The translations under genes and the position numbers were made by a program. Below, one piece after another: positions 6,404 through 52,261 of a DNA stretch of 64,000 bases. Location of the stretch: the UHGV virus genome UHGV-0299153, one strand, 5' to 3'. Below the pieces are notes generated by a model. The model did not search any database. It saw only the letters and a program-made list of their open reading frames with translations, and was not told the origin of the DNA. Position 1 is the first letter of the stretch, and each line of letters opens with the position of its first letter. This DNA is from a virus.

Positions 6404-6711
6404 TCGCTATTACGCCAACCGTTTTAGATTGGTATCGGCAACGCATAGCGCCTCCGCTGGCTATCTTCAAAGATGCGGAAGCAAAACAACGCCGGATCTC
6501 AATACATGAGATCATCAACCTTAACGCTGGAGGCACACCATACCGCCCAGGACCTGGCCGTGAGATGGACAATACGTTAGCGATCCTGAAGATACGCCGT
6601 AAACGGTCCTCCCTTACTCTGGACTCATTACACACAATGCAGCCTCCGTTCCAGGTGACCGGGAAACGGATCGCCAGGTCCTGGACAAAGGCCAATGATC
6701 GGACCGTATAA
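6400..6711 (+). CDS. hypothetical protein (103 aa)
   Basis: ORF track; ATGA overlap with upstream gene suggests translational coupling. Confidence 0.5.
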   Translation: MIAITPTVLDWYRQRIAPPLAIFKDAEAKQRRISIHEIINLNAGGTPYRPGPGREMDNTLAILKIRRKRSSLTLDSLHTMQPPFQVTGKRIARSWTKANDRTV

Positions 6712-8089: not shown

Positions 8090-8108
8090 TTTTTTAACTG
8101 AATTATCA

Positions 8109-8132
8109 AGGGGCTTAGGCCCCTTTCTTTTT
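8109..8132 (+). terminator. Rho-independent terminator ending the rightward early block
   Basis: AGGGGC/GCCCCT stem, TTAG loop, then TTCTTTTT. Confidence 0.6.
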
Positions 8133-8749
8133 GTCTGCTCTTCTCCTACCATAAACGGCCCTACCTGGCAAGTGGAATAATTGACTAGCCATCAATCCCG
8201 CATACTGTACAAATATACATGGAAAATAACTATTGCATAATTTTTCATTGTGTGGTAGCAAGTCCATTTTTACCCGTTTTCTCTCCCAAAAGTGCACGTA
8301 ATGCCGCTATTGCACAAATTTTAACCTGATGCACATCTCCAATATCTTGTCAACAACTAAAAATCTTTATAAGTCATACACTTACACAGCATCGAAAGCG
8401 TGTTCTACGCGAAAAATCGAGTATAACTATAGCCGCCAGATCTCAGAATTCACGTACGCACGCCATTCTATAGCCTGCAAAGTATTTATTCCAACCACAG
8501 AATAACGGAATAGTCAATACCTGCATAAAATAATTATTCGTGTAAACTGCATAACATAAATCAGCTCAGGTGTCAACATTTTTCGTAAACAGTCCGAAAT
8601 TATCACGATGAGTTATCATAAACAGAGAAATCTTTAGTCGTCTAATGTTTACTGTACATTACTATACTGACTGGAATCATTAGATGACTAAGAGAAAGAT
8701 AAGAAATAATTAATAATGTAATTATTTTACCTGTAACAATAAGGCAACT

Positions 8750-9030
8750 ATGCAAACGAATGGCATGGCGCGACGGAGTCGCGACATAATATAAAAGCAG
8801 TAACCATCACCCCCGTGATAGTTTGTCTGCAAACTATTAATCAGATCATAGTTGCCTTGTATTTAGTTAATCGTGACATAACAAGCAAGGCAACTATAGA
8901 TCTTCTAATAGTTGCCCTGCTTTTATATTATGTCATAGAAACACCCGAAGGGGTGACCAAAGGTCACCTGGCATAGCCAGTGAAAGATTGTAAACAAGTT
9001 AATTATTATCATGCAAACGAATGGCATGGC
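8750..9030. repeat. 20-bp direct repeat ATGCAAACGAATGGCATGGC (8750-8769 and 9011-9030)
   Basis: Exact match read from sequence. Confidence 0.7.
8783..8934. repeat. 18-bp perfect inverted repeat GACATAATATAAAAGCAG / CTGCTTTTATATTATGTC enclosing GGCAACTAT/ATAGTTGCC sub-repeats
   Basis: Arms at 8783-8800 and 8917-8934; GGCAACTAT at 8743 and 8889, ATAGTTGCC at 8848 and 8908. Confidence 0.7.
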
Positions 9031-9042
9031 TTATCATCTCTG

Positions 9043-9097
9043 TGTAAATAGTTTGTTTGTAAACAGTTTATACGTGAACAGTTAGCTGTGTAAACTA
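9043..9097. repeat. Cluster of TGTAAA(C/T)AGTT-like iterons
   Basis: TGTAAATAGTT, TGTAAACAGTT, GTGAACAGTT, TGTAAACTAT within 55 bp; related copies near 8540, 8825 and 9359. Confidence 0.55.
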
Positions 9098-10585
9098 TCA
9101 GGCATGTCAATTATGCCCGGTGTGTTTAAGGTGCCCAGTATGTCAGACAAGTTTTTCTCCTCTTTGTCAAGTGCTGCATGAAAAATTTACAAACTGGTAT
9201 GGTAGCATTTTTGCGGCCCTGTTTACATTCAGTAATGTATGTATAATCCTTGTTGTGTGGGCGTTTAGACGTCTAGACGGTTGGAAGTCCACAGGTCAAT
9301 ATCTAATCTATCGGCTGCTAACTATATCCCACACAAATAGTAAGAAATATAATTGTTATGTGTGTAAACAGTAACTCATGTTATCAATCCCTGTATGGAT
9401 CGCCAGTGGTGCGCATAATGGGTATTATGTTAAATTGCCCGTAATGATAACTATTCTCACAATGATAGGTATTCTCATTCCCCCACACAAAATAGATTGC
9501 AAATGTTGTGCCACTATGTGAACGGCCTCACCTATTAATTTGCCTCACTGCCTCGATATTTGAGAATTATTATAAGAATGAGAAGTATTCCCATTCCGTC
9601 CGCCTGGCAGCACTCCAGTCGCTACCGCTCATGACAGGGCAGAACTGGGTCCATTCAGATATTTCTGGCTGACTCTTCAGGCCTGTGTGGGAAAAGCCAA
9701 CCTCTCCGGCGGCGGCGGGGAGGGGTTTGTCAGGAAAATTGCAGGTCAATTAAAAAATTTACGGGGTATATGAAGCGCTCTTCAGATAAGGCATGTATTA
9801 TGGGATGAAACCCTCTTCAGGCAATGATATTTGTGGGTGTGATATTTGCTGGAAAGCCAGATATGACGGGACTCCCGGCGGGGCAGGGGTAGTACAGACA
9901 GGGAAAATATGGAGGATGTGGTTGGGTAAATTGATCAGGCAGGTAGAGTATGGAATATGTTACAGGTATGTTAAATAGGGAGGCTGAATATCTGTAGGAT
10001 TTGTGTGTAAAATCAAAGACTTAAGGGGTGTTGTGGTATTTTCTATAAATAATTCAAGTTTAATAGGCAATATTTGTCTCTATCCGCTTTGTGTGGTAAA
10101 CAGATTCAGATTAGATTGGTTTACAAGTGTATACATAATATACAAATTAAAGATACAAGAAACCCCCCTCCCCCTTCGGCTACCATTCACCTTTTCCTCT
10201 GACTGGTACTTAAACACTTATTCAGACTTTTCAGGTTATCACCCATATACCATATGGCAGTGACTGGTGTCCTCCGGCCCCTCTTTCGTCACCCGTCCGC
10301 TTCGCCATGCTAATGCCATAGCCAATGGTTCGGTTGTTCACCCTGTTCACTCAGGTGTATCTCCATACCCCTTCAAACCGAAGAGAACAGAAAACCCGAA
10401 TTACTCGGTAAAAGAAAAGAGAAGAACTTAATTTTATCAGGATAGGCAAGAATGTCAAGGCATGACTGCTCACTAAACAAGCAAACAGTCATGTGTGGGA
10501 GGTAAGTGATTGTGGTGGTAGGAAATTTAGTTGAAAGATGTGTTATAGGTGCTCCCAGCACTTTAGCCGGGTAGCTAATTGTGTG

Positions 10586-10801
10586 TCAGTCCAGTGGTTC
10601 ATCACCTACTTCACTGAAATCAATGTTCATGGTCTCCTCCCAACCATCAATCTCAGCACCAGAGTAGAGATCTTTAGGACTTACTCCCAAAGCCTCAGCA
10701 ACAGAGTCTATATTTAACACCTCTGGCAGGTATGATTCATCGAGTTCAAGGTAAATCAGGCCACGAGTGTTGTCAGCTCCACCAAATATTTCTATCTTCA
10801 T
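10586..10801 (-). CDS. hypothetical small acidic protein (72 aa)
   Basis: Internal ATG of ORF 10586-10867 with GAGGAG SD; last gene of leftward block. Confidence 0.5.
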   Translation of the reverse strand: MKIEIFGGADNTRGLIYLELDESYLPEVLNIDSVAEALGVSPKDLYSGAEIDGWEETMNIDFSEVGDEPLD

Positions 10802-10921
10802 GAAATCTCCTCTGGAAATGAGAATGTGAACAGGGTTTATATGTTCCAATGCACTGGAATTATGCACGTTTGCCTCTTCAGGCCATGCTTTAGCATGAGG
10901 AACCTGTGTGGGCTCGGTGCT

Positions 10922-11335
10922 TCATAGTCTACCACCTCTGAACTCTTCGTGCTCAGGCATAATAGAGAACCAGATATCTACGATGTCTTCCCACGTTAGG
11001 TCATCAGCCTCAGGATCTACCTGGAGCGAAGATGGAGAATCTTCAGAATCGAAGTTTTCCTCTTGCACTGGCTCAGTCAAGGGACATACAGTCACTCCTT
11101 TGGATGTCTCTTCAGATGCATGTGTGTTTATCATGTTCCACCCGTGAGTATTCCGGCAACAGCCACTATGGACGTAATGATCATCAGGATCACCACCAAA
11201 ACCTCTGACAATGTTTTCATTGTGTATCCCATATTCTCCAAACGATGTGTGGATACTATCACTGGAGCGGCAATGTGTCAACAGAAACGCCGCGAGGGTT
11301 TGGTTAAAATCCGAGCGTATGGTGATTTGGGTCAA
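10922..11335 (-). CDS. hypothetical protein (start uncertain)
   Basis: ORF track only; acidic C-terminus like neighbours; competing plus-strand ORFs. Confidence 0.3.
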   Translation of the reverse strand: MTQITIRSDFNQTLAAFLLTHCRSSDSIHTSFGEYGIHNENIVRGFGGDPDDHYVHSGCCRNTHGWNMINTHASEETSKGVTVCPLTEPVQEENFDSEDSPSSLQVDPEADDLTWEDIVDIWFSIMPEHEEFRGGRL

Positions 11336-35680: not shown

Positions 35681-36139
35681 TTAGAAGTTTGTTTTTACAC
35701 GTCCCTTTTCATCTACCTCATTGTTAGCTAAAAGCGTTACAAAGTCTGTGAAACGGACATGAAGAACTCTTTTCTTGTCAAGGTATCCTAAAGCCACCCC
35801 TGAAAAATTTAGCATCAAGGGGGCTAAAGAAGCTCTAGCACTGAAATGCTGTTGTTCTACTCTTCCTACACCCTTAGTGTAGGATGGGTTAAGATTGTAA
35901 GTTCTGAATCCCAGTTTTGTTGGAGCTTTAGAATTAAAAACAACTTTATAGCGTTTCTTACTCAACTTATGCTCCAGGATAAGAATTCCCTTATCACCCT
36001 TGATAAGTTGAAAATCTGTAAAGTGCTCTTTTAAGACGAAAGGTAGTGCCAGTCCCATAGCCTGGCCTCTTTGTACCGCTGTCTCACCAAAAGCTTTTGC
36101 ATCAGCAAGTTCTTTGGTCAAGTCTATGCTTTTGATCAT
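35681..36139 (-). CDS. hypothetical protein (152 aa)
   Basis: ORF track. Confidence 0.5.
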   Translation of the reverse strand: MIKSIDLTKELADAKAFGETAVQRGQAMGLALPFVLKEHFTDFQLIKGDKGILILEHKLSKKRYKVVFNSKAPTKLGFRTYNLNPSYTKGVGRVEQQHFSARASLAPLMLNFSGVALGYLDKKRVLHVRFTDFVTLLANNEVDEKGRVKTNF

Positions 36140-47985: not shown

Positions 47986-48540
47986 ATGAAATACTTTGTA
48001 ACAAGCGATACACACTTTCTCCACCAGCGGGTCATGGAGTTTGATTCATGTCAAAAACACAGATCTCAGTATGATCACAATCTTGACAGTATGAATGCGG
48101 GAATCATCACCAAGTGGAACTCTGTTGTGTCACCTGCAGACACTGTGTTCCACTTGGGAGATATTGCATGCACTAATGATAAGAATATCAACAAATTGCT
48201 CCCAGATATTCTAAATATGTTGAACGGACATATTATTCTTGTTCGTGGCAACCATGACACAAGGACGACTGTCAAAATTATGAAAGAGTTCGGTCATGAG
48301 GTTGTAGATTATTACGAGCTTCGCCACAACAAGAATTTGATCTGTATGAGCCATTACCAGTTTGCAAAGTGGAACAGAAAGCCTCACGGATCAGTCCAAC
48401 TGTTCGGTCATGCTCACGGAACCACACAACAGTTGTTTGGCAGGCAGCTTGATGTCGGTTGGGATGTGTGGGGGAGACTCTTACCATTAGAAGAGGCATA
48501 CCGTATTGCAATGAGTTTTGATATTGACAGCAGGGAGTAA
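47986..48540 (+). CDS. calcineurin-like metallophosphoesterase
   Basis: TSDTHF (DxH), LGDIA (GD), VRGNHD (GNHD/E), GHAH blocks. Confidence 0.75.
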   Translation: MKYFVTSDTHFLHQRVMEFDSCQKHRSQYDHNLDSMNAGIITKWNSVVSPADTVFHLGDIACTNDKNINKLLPDILNMLNGHIILVRGNHDTRTTVKIMKEFGHEVVDYYELRHNKNLICMSHYQFAKWNRKPHGSVQLFGHAHGTTQQLFGRQLDVGWDVWGRLLPLEEAYRIAMSFDIDSRE

Positions 48541-48587
48541 TCCCTGCTATTTTAAAGAAAATTGCCACACAAGGAGAATCAGGAGAT

Positions 48588-48938
48588 ATGAAAGATGGGG
48601 ATAAGCTGCTATATCTTAAAGTCCCCCTTGAAATACTGTCTATGTCAAAAGTTTTGAATGACACAACTGGGGAGGTTGTTGTTCTTGACTTGTATGACAA
48701 GATCGTATACTGCTACCTGCACAACTGGTATAAGCTTGGAGGAAATTCACGCTTCACACCAAGCACAAGGAAAATTGCAGCAGATATTGGGATAAAGAAA
48801 ACAAAAGCAGCAGCGTGCGTTAAAACTTTAGAATGTGCAGGAGTGGTTGAAACATCCACACAAGGGAGAGGTAAAAGATGCACATTTTCCAAAGTTTTGC
48901 CACCAGAAGAAGTTATTCGAATGTCAACAACTGGTTAG
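48588..48938 (+). CDS. hypothetical protein, possible DNA-binding (116 aa)
   Basis: ORF track; AGGAGAA SD; TRKIAADIGIKKTKAAACVKTL resembles an HTH; lies upstream of iteron array. Confidence 0.5.
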   Translation: MKDGDKLLYLKVPLEILSMSKVLNDTTGEVVVLDLYDKIVYCYLHNWYKLGGNSRFTPSTRKIAADIGIKKTKAAACVKTLECAGVVETSTQGRGKRCTFSKVLPPEEVIRMSTTG

Positions 48939-49013
48939 ACCAGCAAAAACTTAAATATCTGTACTATAAGGATTTGTATGTTTTATGTTCACCACGGAAC
49001 AGAAACTATTAAC

Positions 49014-49073
49014 TGTCCGTCACGCGGACACATCTGCCCGTAATACGGACACTAACTGTCCGTGATACGGACA
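49014..49073. repeat. Iteron array: alternating TGTCCGT / ACGGACA half-sites (5 copies)
   Basis: TGTCCGT 49014 and 49057; (A)CGGACA 49025, 49045, 49067; followed by 130-bp AT-rich block with palindromes AGTAC-N5-GTACT. Confidence 0.7.
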
Positions 49074-49577
49074 CATAAAGAATATAACTAAAATAACTAA
49101 ATAATAAAAATAAAAGATCTAGTACTTATGGTACTAAGTACATATACTTAACTTATGTAGAATATATTAGATCCTAAGTACCATGTTTTTAAATTTATTA
49201 CTTACTATGGGTAGTGTCGGCCCTTCATTGGCACTCGCCTACGAGGGGCGAGATGCCGGGCCTCCCTAGTGCACACAATAACAGAGGTGCATACATGCAG
49301 GTCTGTTAACATGTGTGGGAGCGAAGCGATAGCGCAGGCCAAAGGCCGAGCACTAATGTGGGCCACCGACGAAAGCTTGCCAGCGCCGTAAGGAGTCGGT
49401 TGAGAGCCTCCCGCGCGAGTTTGGATAAAGTTTATGTGTGGAAACGGATAATGAGGCCCCTAAATCACTCAACAGCTATATAAACCATACCAAGTAATGC
49501 AATCGCACCAGTTTGATAGAAAAGCTCGTTACAAAGCGATACAGTGAGTTTTTCTATAACTTGAAGAGGAGGCAGCT

Positions 49578-50156
49578 ATGAGTTCACGCAAAGATGACCG
49601 TGAAAAGATTGCAAAACGTTATCAGAATGAAGAACAGATGGAGAAAACTTTCAAGTGGAAGCCAGGTTTCCAGCGTAATCATTCTAACGCTCGTGATCGT
49701 AAGCATCCAGATAAGTGGCTAACACCGCCAAATGATGGCATGCAGGCTGGTGATGAGAAGGAGCTGTCACCTGGAAAAGATGGCAACTATATCCGCACTA
49801 AGGAAGCGAGTCCAAAGGATGATAGCTATCTTGTAGATAAGGTTCTTGATGGTATTGATGTAGATGTTGACACTGCACGAAACCTTTTTCTTGGTTGGTA
49901 TCGTACAGGGTTTTTCGACATCAAGGCTATTCGTCGTGTTTGTGATATTAAAAAGTCTGCCTATGATGATGACTCCCTACATCGCACTCTGAGACAATAC
50001 TCAGAGAGATACGGTCATCCAGTTATCACTCTTGACGATATTAACGAAGTGATGTATCATGCAGAGGTTGTTGCAGGTAGATTCGGTGATGCATATCTCG
50101 GTATTCTTTCTGCAAAAGATGAGGCAATGTTAAATAAAATTTACTATGAACGCTGA
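49578..50156 (+). CDS. hypothetical protein (192 aa)
   Basis: ORF track; GAGGAGG SD. Confidence 0.55.
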   Translation: MSSRKDDREKIAKRYQNEEQMEKTFKWKPGFQRNHSNARDRKHPDKWLTPPNDGMQAGDEKELSPGKDGNYIRTKEASPKDDSYLVDKVLDGIDVDVDTARNLFLGWYRTGFFDIKAIRRVCDIKKSAYDDDSLHRTLRQYSERYGHPVITLDDINEVMYHAEVVAGRFGDAYLGILSAKDEAMLNKIYYER

Positions 50157-50355
50157 GGAGCGCTTAATGAACAACCCGGTAGCAAAGAACTGTAATAAGT
50201 TCAACAAGTCTGCAATTCACACTGACAGGAAAAAGGGCTGGTCTCCTGACATTGACGAGGAGCTTGAGAGTTACTTTGAAGACCTGGTCACTAATGCAGA
50301 TGAGGTTGCGATTAAAGAATACGCAGACAGGAAGGATAAGGCCGGAATCTGTTGA
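50146..50355 (+). CDS. hypothetical protein (69 aa)
   Basis: ORF track; overlaps upstream gene end. Confidence 0.45.
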   Translation: MNAEERLMNNPVAKNCNKFNKSAIHTDRKKGWSPDIDEELESYFEDLVTNADEVAIKEYADRKDKAGIC

Positions 50356-50431
50356 CAAAAATAGTGTTACCTGATAAGATCTGCAATATGATGTGATGCA
50401 ATTTTAACTTACGAGGTCTACAGGTAATGCT

Positions 50432-50674
50432 ATGTTTAAGGTTAAGCTCGTTTTTCGTTCCATGAATGAGGATTATTTAGAAGATGAAGGTGAATTTCGT
50501 GCACTGGATGATGCAATAGATTTTGCCAACGACCTAGCTTGTATGAATACAGGTTATGGGCTATGCTGTTGGGATGGTGGTGTTCAGATCGGTGATAGCA
50601 AGATCTTCTACTTCTACCCTGAGCCTGATAACAAACAAATTAAGTATGTTTTATTTATTTGCGCTTTACAATGA
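50432..50674 (+). CDS. hypothetical protein (80 aa)
   Basis: ORF track. Confidence 0.5.
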   Translation: MFKVKLVFRSMNEDYLEDEGEFRALDDAIDFANDLACMNTGYGLCCWDGGVQIGDSKIFYFYPEPDNKQIKYVLFICALQ

Positions 50675-50739
50675 GGTTGTTTTCGTGTATCATGATGAAT
50701 ATCCAATTTAAAGATGAATTTGATGGCTTTATCTCCGGA

Positions 50740-50950
50740 TGCTTTGAAACAGGGTTCGGAGAAGACTGAGTTCCCCTTAGAGGGCTTGATAGTGCACCAC
50801 ACTTAAAATGGTAGGGGCAGCCAGCACATGACGATGTGACCCCAGCCAACCTGTAATAAGGTCGAGCCTGAGCGCGGTAATGGGTATAGCTGGAAAACCC
50901 ACTTGCTGGTCCAGGACGCTGGACAAGTCGCAGGGAACACCACCCTGCGG
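50740..50950 (+). ncRNA. candidate structured non-coding RNA (GC-rich, ORF-free island)
   Basis: GC-rich block in AT-rich context; hairpins CACAT-GACG-ATGTG (50825-50838) and GTCCAG-GACG-CTGGAC (50909-50924); CAGGGT/ACCCTG closing pair; only an implausible antisense ORF. Confidence 0.3.
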
Positions 50951-50955
50951 CGAAC

Positions 50956-50984
50956 TTGACAATCAGTATTTGCTGTGATAAAAT
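50956..50984 (+). promoter_or_regulatory. sigma70-like promoter
   Basis: TTGACA-17 bp-TAAAAT, 28 bp upstream of ATG 51013 (SD GGAGGA). Confidence 0.55.
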
Positions 50985-51012
50985 CCACCTATCACGTGAT
51001 AATGGAGGAAAC

Positions 51013-51351
51013 ATGGCGGATACAACTAAAAAGCGTCGCCGTAGAGGCAGACCTCTGAAAGAGGAGTCTAACGCCATTCAGCTAGAGAAGAACATCCTTG
51101 ATATGAAGGAATCTTTTATAGCGATGGTTCCAGAAGCTCACAAAGTTTTAAGAGAGCTGATGTTGGACCCGAAAACCAAACAAAATATTCGTCAAAGCAT
51201 TGCAGAGTATGTTCTTGATAAGGCAGACCGAATGCAGGAAGAATATGATGAGATGTTTGGTGAAGAGGAAGAGGTGGTAGTGGAAGAGGCTGAAAAACCA
51301 GCACCTTTTATGCCATTTACTACAGAAATACAGCCTGTTAGCAATAGCTAA
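51013..51351 (+). CDS. hypothetical DNA-binding protein (basic N-terminus KKRRRRGRP); possible terminase small subunit
   Basis: Internal ATG of ORF 50956-51351; strong promoter and SD; upstream of tRNAs and terminase large subunit. Confidence 0.5.
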   Translation: MADTTKKRRRRGRPLKEESNAIQLEKNILDMKESFIAMVPEAHKVLRELMLDPKTKQNIRQSIAEYVLDKADRMQEEYDEMFGEEEEVVVEEAEKPAPFMPFTTEIQPVSNS

Positions 51352-51447
51352 AATATTTTCTTGACAAACTTTGCTTAACAGTGTAATATTGTAAACATGG
51401 TCTCCCACCTTTTCTGGCGGCTAAGGTGTAAAAGAAAGCCACCCAGT

Positions 51448-51522
51448 GCCCTGTTAGCTTAGTGGATAAAGCAGCGGCCTTCTAAGCCGTTGACACTGGT
51501 TCGAGTCCAGTACGGGGTGCCA
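51448..51522 (+). tRNA. tRNA-Arg (anticodon TCT)
   Basis: Cloverleaf folded by hand: acceptor GCCCTGT/ACGGGGT, anticodon loop CTTCTAA, T-arm ACTGG-TTCGAGT-CCAGT, encoded CCA. Confidence 0.75.
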
Positions 51523-51526
51523 AATT

Positions 51527-51613
51527 GGGGAGTTATCCCGTAGAGGTAGCGGTGTAGACTGTAAATCTATTGTCATTGCGACTCGGGTGGTTCGACTCCA
51601 CCACTCCCCACCA
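51527..51613 (+). tRNA. tRNA-Tyr (anticodon GTA), type II
   Basis: Acceptor GGGGAGT/ACTCCCC, anticodon loop CTGTAAA, long variable arm, T-arm GGTGG-TTCGACT-CCACC, encoded CCA. Confidence 0.8.
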
Positions 51614-51728
51614 AATTTATATTTTTTAGATGCATAAATAATACAGATAATGGCATTGATATTTATCGTCGTTTATACTAGTCACTAACTGCTCGAAAAT
51701 CAGTGTCATTATCAGTATAATTTATAAA

Positions 51729-51819
51729 GGAGGGTAGGGAGCAATGGTGCTCAAGCGGTCTTGAAAACCGTCCCGTTGAGGATGACTCGATGATGGTTCG
51801 ATTCCATTACTCTCCGCCA
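51729..51819 (+). tRNA. tRNA-Ser (anticodon TGA), type II
   Basis: Acceptor GGAGGGT/ACTCTCC, anticodon loop CTTGAAA, long variable arm, encoded CCA. Confidence 0.75.
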
Positions 51820-51917
51820 CATTGTTGACCTTGTAATTAAGCGAAAGCCGGAAGCAGAACCGGATTATCAAATGTTACAGTCGTCATCGCCGACTAGCAA
51901 CATGGTCAACATATTGA

Positions 51918-52014
51918 GCTAGGTAAGCCCTTTGGCAAGGGCGAGGATTTTTAATCCTGAAAATAGACGAGGTAGTCGTTGAATACATAGGTGGTTCGAT
52001 TCCACCGCCTAGCA
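51918..52014 (+). tRNA. atypical tRNA-like gene (anticodon loop TTTTTAA, apparent UUU; about 30-nt variable region)
   Basis: Acceptor GCTAGGT/GCCTAGC, D-arm GCCC-TTTGGCAA-GGGC, T-arm GGTGG-TTCGATT-CCACC; only a 4-bp anticodon stem; no encoded CCA. Confidence 0.45.
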
Positions 52015-52021
52015 CCTTTTT

Positions 52022-52097
52022 GCTGATGTAGCACAATTGGTAGTGCAATTGATTTGTAATCAATAGGTTGCGGGTTCAAGTCCTGCCATCAGCACCA
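52022..52097 (+). tRNA. tRNA-Thr (anticodon TGT)
   Basis: Acceptor GCTGATG/CATCAGC, anticodon arm ATTGA-TTTGTAA-TCAAT, encoded CCA. Confidence 0.75.
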
Positions 52098-52098
52098 T

Positions 52099-52173
52099 GG
52101 CCCTGTAGCTGGAAGGTTCAAGCAAGCGACTCATAATCGCCAGACGGTGGTTCAATTCCACCCAGGGCCACCA
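52099..52173 (+). tRNA. tRNA-Met (anticodon CAT; could be an Ile-lysidine type)
   Basis: Acceptor GGCCCTG/CAGGGCC, anticodon loop CTCATAA, T-arm GGTGG-TTCAATT-CCACC, encoded CCA. Confidence 0.75.
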
Positions 52174-52184
52174 AATAGTAGATA

Positions 52185-52261
52185 CTCCGCGTAGCTCAGC
52201 TTGGTAGAGCGCCTGATTTGGGATCAGGAGGTCGAGTGTTCGAATCACTCCGTGGAGACCA
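52185..52261 (+). tRNA. tRNA-Pro (anticodon TGG)
   Basis: Acceptor CTCCGCG/CGTGGAG (one GU), anticodon arm CCTGA-TTTGGGA-TCAGG, T-arm GAGTG-TTCGAAT-CACTC, encoded CCA. Confidence 0.75.

Follow-up and report, generated by a model that had tools for sequence, protein, structure and literature searches.

We analysed 64,000 nucleotides (nt) of the virus genome UHGV-0299153 (hereafter referred to as the window) and focused on the gap between two genes, one encoding a predicted winged-helix DNA-binding protein of 116 amino acids (aa; 48588-48938, + strand) and the other a 192-aa protein (start at 49578). The gap contains a tandem array of palindromes (49010-49076), an AT-rich block (49075-49205) and a GC-rich island, which is most likely a structured RNA. 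We propose, with a probability of about one half, that the locus combines an iteron-type origin cassette with a new structured RNA whose role is to prime or activate replication. This makes it the best candidate yet for the origin of the phage, and a plausible and testable one; judged from comparative sequence evidence, the structured-RNA component is well supported and new. The window derives from a Vequintavirus, an rV5-like E. coli myovirus of ~137 kb. In 1.2 kb around the locus, 119 GenBank phage records matched at ≥ 90% identity, every one of them a Vequintavirus, and the locus itself is 90-97% identical among these genomes.

The array starts 75 bp past the stop codon of the 116-aa gene and consists of three 17-bp palindromes (49014-49030, 49035-49051 and 49057-49073) that differ from TGTCCGT-N3-ACGGACA by 1, 1 and 0 mismatches, respectively. 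A preliminary description, made from the letters of the window alone, had reported five half-sites here, and their positions were correct (TGTCCGT at 49014 and 49057, ACGGACA at 49045 and 49067, CGGACA at 49025); the count was not, as a sixth half-site (TGCCCGT, 49035) had been overlooked, which turns five loose half-sites into three tandem palindromes. Start-to-start spacing is 21 and 22 bp, equivalent to two helical turns, so that all palindromes would lie on one face of the DNA. Sites with ≤ 2 mismatches are expected by chance only 0.115 times per 64 kb (dinucleotide-preserving shuffles), and relatives carry 3 or 4 copies, consistent with the conservation that the preliminary description had called for. 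Its term "iteron" needs a correction, given that the sites are palindromic 17-mers and classical iterons are direct repeats. With at least three tandem, helically phased repeats, the array has the format of an iteron origin; with tandem 17-bp dyad-symmetric sites, it also has that of a lambdoid operator. A few GenBank records annotate a tandem "repeat_region" exactly at the half-site positions. Two further 17-mers with two mismatches are present in the window (6555-6571 and 35743-35759) and could be secondary protein sites or chance occurrences, as shuffles reach two per window. Short-read contigs frequently break inside the array, and Logan contigs terminating there were rejected as genome ends and attributed to assembly breaks at the tandem repeat.

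The adjoining AT-rich block, which is A-rich on the + strand, is a candidate DNA-unwinding element by its composition only: positions 49073-49172 are the AT-richest 100 nt of the window (18% GC), and the block contains the AT-rich 9-mer ATAACTAAA twice in tandem (49084-49101). The GC-richest 100 nt (49317-49416; 65% GC) fall in the same gap, and thus two compositional extremes of 64 kb adjoin. Nested inverted repeats occupy the block (49107-28/49175-96 and 49128-38/49174-84), and both palindromes named in the preliminary description, AGTAC-TTATG-GTACT (49121-49135) and ATGGTACTAAG / CTAAGTACCAT (49128-38 / 49174-84), are present. GATC sites showed no clustering in the block, since its two copies are unremarkable against a window mean of 5.8 GATC/kb.

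We next examined the 116-aa protein, the presumed binder of the palindromes. Its suspected helix-turn-helix segment was borne out by matches to Pfam HTH_36 (E = 1.5e-5) and DUF6945, while Pfam Phage_rep_O gave no match. PHROG 12838, to which the protein was assigned, and RefSeq both use the name "replication initiation protein", and GenBank records use "putative transcriptional regulator" or "DNA-binding protein". An AlphaFold2 model built from an 8-sequence alignment (predicted local distance difference test score, pLDDT, 81.6; 46 from the single sequence) comprised two N-terminal strands followed by a winged helix-turn-helix (wHTH). In a Foldseek comparison of this model with the PDB, the top match was an uncharacterised Vibrio domain (4ro3), followed by the DNA-binding domains of RepA_N initiators (4pql, 5kbj, 4pt7 and 4pta; template modelling (TM) score 0.49-0.57, 90-114 alignment columns), among which 5kbj is a Rep-iteron DNA complex. 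The RepA_N matches span nearly the whole chain, including the strands that precede the wHTH, whereas alignments to the listed wHTH regulators of transcription (CodY, MarR-type and others) extend over just ~56-91 columns. These whole-length matches of the predicted structure favour initiator domains. Sequence similarity to RepA_N initiators is marginal (E = 0.4-0.6) and a match to TubR is weak; the protein can be likened to the lambda O, SaPI Rep and RepA_N families but not assigned to them. Searches for relatives stayed close to home: tblastn with the 116-aa, 143-aa (see below) and 192-aa proteins found nothing outside the genus, an IMG/VR search for relatives of the 116-aa protein found none, and a search of 5.8 billion proteins returned near-identical sequences only. 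A representative protein search gave 11 matches, of which 6 were HTH_36 proteins and 3 were spurious.

The same features could also describe a transcriptional switch, in which the 116-aa protein is a repressor or activator, the palindromes are its operators, and what they control is rightward transcription into a structured leader or a non-coding RNA. Such an RNA might be a cis-acting element for antitermination, stability or translation control that heads a long operon, and replication would be uninvolved. We consider this the main rival, though less probable than an origin. Three tandem 17-bp dyad sites match the format of lambda OR/OL, one of the GenBank labels names a transcriptional regulator, and the wHTH core also matches the regulators CodY, MarR and SlyA, even if matches over the whole chain point the other way. 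Against a switch, the sites lie downstream of the presumed regulator gene and not at its promoter, and a promoter would require much less than 130 bp at 18-20% GC. A scan for sigma-70-like promoters (score ≥ 9/12), the only type covered, gave none on the + strand that overlapped the array or came after it. The only nearby promoter-like site is on the - strand (48991-48963; 9/12), 22 bp to the left of the array, and a score of 9/12 is at background level, being reached 13 times in 3.1 kb versus 6.7 expected. The rV5 genome paper likewise lists no promoter here, and none of its promoter and terminator predictions falls within the gap.

Comparison with a sister lineage, represented by the IMG/VR contig L014 and at least eight further contigs of ~130 kb (L202-L206), gave the strongest indication that the protein and the repeats are linked. 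Homology of this lineage to the window stops near 48550 and restarts exactly at 49216. In between, it carries a 143-aa homologue in place of the 116-aa protein (28% identity, E = 5e-7), followed by palindromes of unrelated sequence, GATACATATTTGTATC (~4-5 copies in L014 and one more in L202), whose spacings (22, 33 and 55 bp) are each a multiple of 11 bp. These repeats are followed by a different AT-rich block, and the flanks and the GC island are kept. The fact that protein and repeats were replaced together, with the island retained, suggests that they form a cognate pair; from these alignments, gene and sites appear to be exchanged as a unit, as is known for the specificity pairs of initiators and origins or of repressors and operators. 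Such joint exchange is equally expected under a transcriptional switch. It nevertheless supports, at the level of sequence comparison, the earlier suggestion that the 116-aa gene encodes the candidate binder of the half-sites. The alternative cassette also has ~150 nt of extra hairpins between its repeats and AT-rich block (reverse complement of L014, 1049-1190, and the equivalent in L202), e.g., ACUGACUGGGAAG..CUUCCCACUCAGU and AACUCUAACU..AGUUAGAGUU, which are absent from the window type. Separately, the 143-aa allele (L014, 2342-2770, - strand) and the remote homologues P0009, P0012 and P0015 have acidic tails ending in ...APF, ...VPF or ...EDF that resemble the C-terminal tip of single-stranded DNA-binding protein (SSB), a tip that recruits replication proteins; the 116-aa protein of the window has no such tail.

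Beyond 49216, the GC island is organised into a series of helices on the + strand. A 5' hairpin, P1 (49219-49262; 14 pairs), is formed by GGCCC/GGGCC, GGCA/UGCC and UCGCC/GGCGA; two of its pairs are compensatory in one plasmid homologue (L011; G-C to U-A, twice), and 98.6-100% of cells in the alignment are paired. It is followed by a variable, dispensable hairpin (49280-49307), in which AACAGA..UCUGUU encloses UGCA-UACA-UGCA. Pair 49285/49302 of this hairpin is A-U, C-G or U-A in three phage lineages, phages Murica and typing phage 5 have lost its 5' arm, and plasmids have several hairpins with UUCG or UACG caps in its place. The conserved core (49311-49420) is built on the helix ACCGAC/GUCGGU (49365-70/49395-400), extended by GGRC/GYCU (49360-63/49406-09), with a possible additional GCGC/GCGC pairing (49332-35/49413-16). 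The 6-bp helix shows three compensatory pairs plus G-U wobbles and encloses an invariant 24-nt loop region (49371-49394) containing GCU-UGCC-AGC and a CC-GNAA-GG tetraloop hairpin, the N of which varies (GUAA or GGAA). Between phage and plasmids, the core is 82-83% identical with invariant loops, while stems change on both sides: GGCA..UGCC to GUCA..UGAC, UCGCC..GGCGA to UCUCC..GGAGA, and ACCGAC..GUCGGU to GCUGCC..GGCAGC. Further 3' (49453-49510, + strand), alignments of phage and plasmids have two patches in common, GCCCCTAAAT (49457-65) and the near-palindrome TGCAATCGCA (49498-49507).

Across 14 distinct sequences, 97.8% of the cells of the 43 proposed pairs were paired, and 7 pairs were changed on both sides, compared with 2.2 ± 1.0 in column shuffles (0/500 shuffles reached this number) and ≤ 2 in slid-partner controls. 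Non-Watson-Crick cells in the island comprised 11 G-U versus 1 A-C, which argues that the + strand folds, i.e., the sense of the flanking genes. GNRA and UNCG loops are typical of RNA and not of single-stranded DNA. Given these loops and the + strand helices kept through 7 compensatory changes, the aligned sequences indicate that the island is most likely a structured RNA. The "local hairpins" of the preliminary description thus turned out to be conserved helices, and its regulatory-RNA suggestion passed the covariance check across relatives that it had itself recommended. An alternative closing helix of the core, GGGAG/CUCCC (structure A), fails in L202, where GGRC/GYCU (structure B) holds, and the outer pairing of the core is therefore uncertain. 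Invariant loops on variable stems would also fit a protein-binding RNA, with RNA polymerase as one conceivable partner, and this speaks for a transcriptional switch.

We rejected the possibility that the island is coding, since 12/12 phage-plasmid differences in the core are non-synonymous in the only open frame; a second frame with synonymous-looking changes has no start codon and has a stop upstream. The gap, described earlier as free of open reading frames (ORFs), contains only short ORFs driven by GC content, and some records annotate those in the island as "hypothetical protein". These annotations are the one point in favour of a decayed gene or of chance repeats in a functionless spacer, a reading that we regard as effectively refuted by the improbability of a chance array, the compensatory changes, the uniformly non-synonymous differences in the open frame and the 90-97% identity in 119 genomes.

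At the gathering score, Rfam 15 detected only tRNAs in the window, and at permissive E-values (1-10 or lower) nothing credible was found in 48900-51450, nor anything in the plasmid or L014 loci. The statement of the preliminary description that no described element is recognisable therefore applies to the RNA, which has no Rfam match, and not to the repeat, already annotated in some GenBank records, or to the protein, already named by RefSeq. Distant-mode blastn of the island against phages gave matches confined to the genus Vequintavirus. A covariance model of the element (R1) found a single copy in each genome and no second one in the window. Wider scans returned little else: an 18-mer scan of genome contigs listed 80 loci (95 matching stretches), all of them in genomes that are unrelated and mostly GC-rich, and an R1 screen of four gammaproteobacterial loci among them was negative; the 75 loci from two IMG/VR scans with shorter patterns were R1-negative throughout; and a metagenome scan added only further phage and plasmid copies. 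A host origin of the island was rejected because E. coli matches were found in plasmids only and not in chromosomes. Eighteen GenBank records labelled "Campylobacter phage" (MG0656xx; host C. jejuni) match across the locus at ≥ 90% identity, mostly ≥ 94%; several of them are unannotated or fragmentary, and they are probably mislabelled or contaminant assemblies.

The only homologues of the island outside the genus were found in ORF-free DNA of circular 13-kb E. coli "plasmids" and two similar metagenome contigs. Distant-mode blastn against PLSDB (72,556 plasmids) returned five records, four from this 13-kb family and one a mislabelled phage genome. Records of this plasmid group are L113 (NZ_CP035869), L011, L012, L110, L112, L114 and L118. 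In these plasmids, a 2.2-kb ORF-free region holds 5-7 dyad-symmetric 23-bp iterons, which differ in sequence between plasmid variants and end ~40 bp before the structured element. On the same strand, ~0.9 kb downstream of the element, lies a gene for a ~300-aa protein with an N-terminal HTH_36 domain and PHROG matches to "replication initiation O-like", "replication initiation protein" and "DnaD-like helicase loader". The Rep-like proteins are 22-83% identical to each other while the RNA core is constant, which suggests that the core is a generic component and not a site specific to one Rep. According to MOB-suite, the 13-kb plasmids are non-mobilizable. The element is present three times in one 39.6-kb plasmid record, possibly a trimer.

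The order of dyad-repeat array, AT-rich stretch and element is thus found in the window type, the L014 type and the plasmids, which are otherwise unlike there: the AT-rich block at this place is of unrelated sequence in L014 and only 35-40 bp long in the plasmids, and the distance from array to island is ~40 bp in plasmids, 140 bp in the window and 260 bp in L014. This variable distance could instead point to unrelated neighbours, with the array and AT-rich block forming an origin or operator and the island an independent stable RNA gene or mRNA processing element that is adjacent by chance. Recombination breakpoints exactly at the 5' edge of the island (49216) show it to be a separable module, and the surrounding stretch is rich in RNA genes, with a second GC-rich, structured-looking island (50730-50950) and seven tRNA calls, one of them doubtful (51448-52261). 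Small stable RNAs also adjoin the tRNA cluster of T4. We nevertheless consider chance adjacency improbable, because the three-part order recurs in all three backgrounds and the single copy of the element in each genome always stands beside such an array.

The plasmids also encode major capsid, tape-measure and baseplate proteins, together with a Neck1-like protein that is 47% identical to a product of the window. No terminase or portal was found in them by annotation or by Pfam/PHROG scans, in which most proteins were of unknown function. The 13-kb plasmids may represent an undescribed family of satellites or mini-phages. If they are satellites, the shared element could be a packaging (pac/cos) or partition (centromere) signal, as the virion genes without terminase or portal, the weak TubR match of the 116-aa protein and a second non-coding hairpin element common to phage and plasmids (window 8937-8987) might suggest. 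We judge this very unlikely. Selection for base pairing on one strand and GNRA/UNCG loops would be unexpected for a double-stranded pac, cos or centromere site, a virulent phage has no need of a partition system, and the capsid protein of the plasmids shares no more than 22-25% identity with any capsid of the phages in the collection, none of its matches being a Vequintavirus.

The second shared element (8937-8987, with an inverted copy near 11062-11111) consists of three back-to-back hairpins, CACCC-GAA-GGGUG, GUGACC-AAA-GGUCAC and CUGGC-AUA-GCCAG, and is 88-90% identical to non-coding DNA of the 13-kb plasmids (L113, 10646-10697; L011, 2756-2806), with a compensatory change between phage and plasmid in the middle hairpin. 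It lies in ~2.4 kb without a credible ORF (8100-10600), a stretch that the rV5 paper probably shows as its "non-coding" box. With 19 copies in the window versus 4.4 expected, the octamer TGTGTGGR is over-represented, and its copies cluster at 9254-11253; it is also found on either side of the hairpins inserted into the plasmid-type RNA and, at 49312, ahead of the core.

Binding of the sites, unwinding, a transcript of the island and any part in replication are inferred here; under the origin reading, they would be connected as follows. The 116-aa gene would supply a small winged-helix protein of the type seen as the N-terminal, DNA-binding domain in initiators of plasmids and phages. Its dimers would bind the three palindromes (3-4 in relatives) on one face of the DNA, and the loaded array would distort and open the adjoining AT-rich block. 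Rightward transcription from upstream promoters would then produce a structured GC-rich RNA of ~200 nt just beyond the opened region; the promoter at 48524-48553 is not separated from the island by a terminator, which makes it plausible that transcription enters from the left. This RNA would act in cis, as a pre-primer, as an R-loop former or as a landing site for host priming or loading proteins. Such a reading accounts for the position of the sites after the gene, their phasing, the AT extreme, the protein fold and the PHROG label, and also for an RNA beside the iterons of replicons with different Rep proteins. The origin half of the preliminary description gained indirect support from layout, initiator-type fold, PHROG and RefSeq names and the placement of the island beside plasmid iterons, and operators are a less probable explanation of the same array.

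Several observations weigh against an origin here. Three 17-bp palindromes in a row are also the format of lambdoid operators, and neither the DnaA-box TTWTNCACA nor the integration host factor (IHF) motif WATCAANNNNTTR has a match in 48900-49600; DnaA boxes and IHF sites are found in many, not all, iteron-type origins. The cumulative GC-skew minimum (~47.5 kb) lies 1.5 kb to the left, at the point of transcription divergence, and GC skew here tracks transcription only. In the rV5 genome paper, the origin was likewise sought by skew analysis, which yielded only switches in transcription direction; the phage also encodes a polymerase and helicases of its own, and it might not need a dedicated origin protein for replication to start. 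As a single wHTH domain, the 116-aa protein lacks a C-terminal part for helicase or loader recruitment, a step that the origin reading leaves unexplained. The plasmids have additional AT-rich repeat blocks 0.3-1.5 kb farther upstream, and these could be the true origin, in which case the arrays beside the RNA would be operators. Concerning the RNA, the covariation rests on few independent lineages (two phage and one plasmid), and, taken as a whole, the island does not fold with unusual energy (z-scores of -1.7 for the + strand and -2.4 for the - strand). The plasmids also bear on the switch in both directions: their element heads a co-directional run of ~12 genes, rep included, as a leader would, whereas the downstream genes differ between phage and plasmid and so offer no conserved regulated target.

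The proposed cassette resembles several known systems without matching any of them. As in lambda ori, 3-4 dyad repeats are followed by an AT-rich stretch and then by palindromic sequence. In lambda, a winged-helix domain binds the repeats as a dimer, related phages swap initiator and repeats jointly, and firing needs transcription through the region. In contrast, lambda ori lies inside the O gene and the C-terminal domain of O recruits P-DnaB, whereas here the sites follow a gene for a bare 116-aa domain, and the ~200-nt structured RNA element has no lambda counterpart. The RepA_N initiators (pSK41 / pTZ2162 RepA), whose N-terminal domain binds origin repeats as a dimer, gave the best near-whole-chain structural matches after 4ro3, but they have a second, DnaD-like domain, an origin inside the rep gene and Gram-positive hosts. 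The rep-ori of SaPI elements shares with lambda ori and the present locus the order of gene, repeats and AT-rich region; its origin is directly 3' of the initiator gene and comes in exchangeable specificity types, but SaPI Rep is a helicase of several hundred residues and no structured RNA is involved.

Other comparisons concern the transcript and the operators. In ColE1 RNA II, T4 oriF/oriG and the T7 primary origins, a transcript by an AT-rich region serves as primer or forms an R-loop, and in RNA II the folding of the RNA decides hybrid formation. Those origins have no initiator repeats, and no antisense partner like RNA I was identified here. Single-strand initiation (ssi) signals, such as those of RSF1010 oriV and the G4-type signals of F-like plasmids, are GC-rich hairpins active on a single strand, next to iterons and an AT-rich region and are recognised by priming proteins. 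The island differs from them in its GNRA/UNCG loops, which point to RNA and not single-stranded DNA, and distant-mode blastn against PLSDB revealed no similarity to F, R100, ColIb or IncQ plasmids, nor to ColE1 RNA II or known G4- and phiX-type ssi on sequenced plasmids. Lambda OR/OL shares three tandem 17-bp pseudo-palindromes, short AT-rich spacers and an adjoining gene for a small HTH protein, but these operators overlap promoters, whereas no convincing promoter covers 49010-49076 and the sites are downstream of the gene. Being outside Rfam families and without similarity to ColE1 RNA II or known ssi, the RNA would be a new motif on a familiar kind of cassette.

Other features of the region were also conserved. 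At the end of the gap, a hairpin with a 12-bp stem, AUAGAAAAGCUC...GAGUUUUUCUAU (49516-49557, + strand; inverted repeat I11), directly precedes the ribosome-binding site of the 192-aa gene. Its stem is invariant across all lineages, including the divergent L014 and L202, in which the sequence just upstream is scrambled. The second GC-rich island (50730-50950; up to 60% GC) is an ORF-free stretch between an 80-aa gene and a sigma-70 promoter (50956-50984; P074 in the rV5 paper). Relatives share this stretch, for which Rfam gave no match; one of its hairpins has a compensatory change in L002 (CUCCGGA..UUCGGAG to CUCUGGA..UUCAGAG), and the stretch may be another structured RNA. Within the tRNA cluster, ARAGORN calls a 99-nt tRNA with a four-base anticodon (atcc) at 51918-52016, which other records list as tRNA-OTHER or tRNA-Lys and which Rfam does not report at the gathering score.

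Vequintaviruses, including rV5, FV3, the phAPEC-type phages and several BASEL phages, are frequently isolated and find use in biocontrol and therapy directed at E. coli. For phage engineering and for copy-number and superinfection or incompatibility studies, the locus offers a candidate origin, a presumed cognate binder and two natural specificity alleles. If the island takes part in initiation, the locus would join the initiator-driven and transcript-driven styles of origin, which are normally alternatives. More tentatively, and as a proposal that we hold to be less likely than the origin itself, the GC island may be the founding member of a new class of structured RNAs, a built-in, initiator-independent part of iteron-type origins. 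Were this true, the RNA would be read by host or phage priming or loading factors, and the element would be common to a virulent 137-kb myovirus and 13-kb plasmids that are maybe its satellites. Origin firing would then require a folded RNA, and satellite-like plasmids would tap the same machinery.

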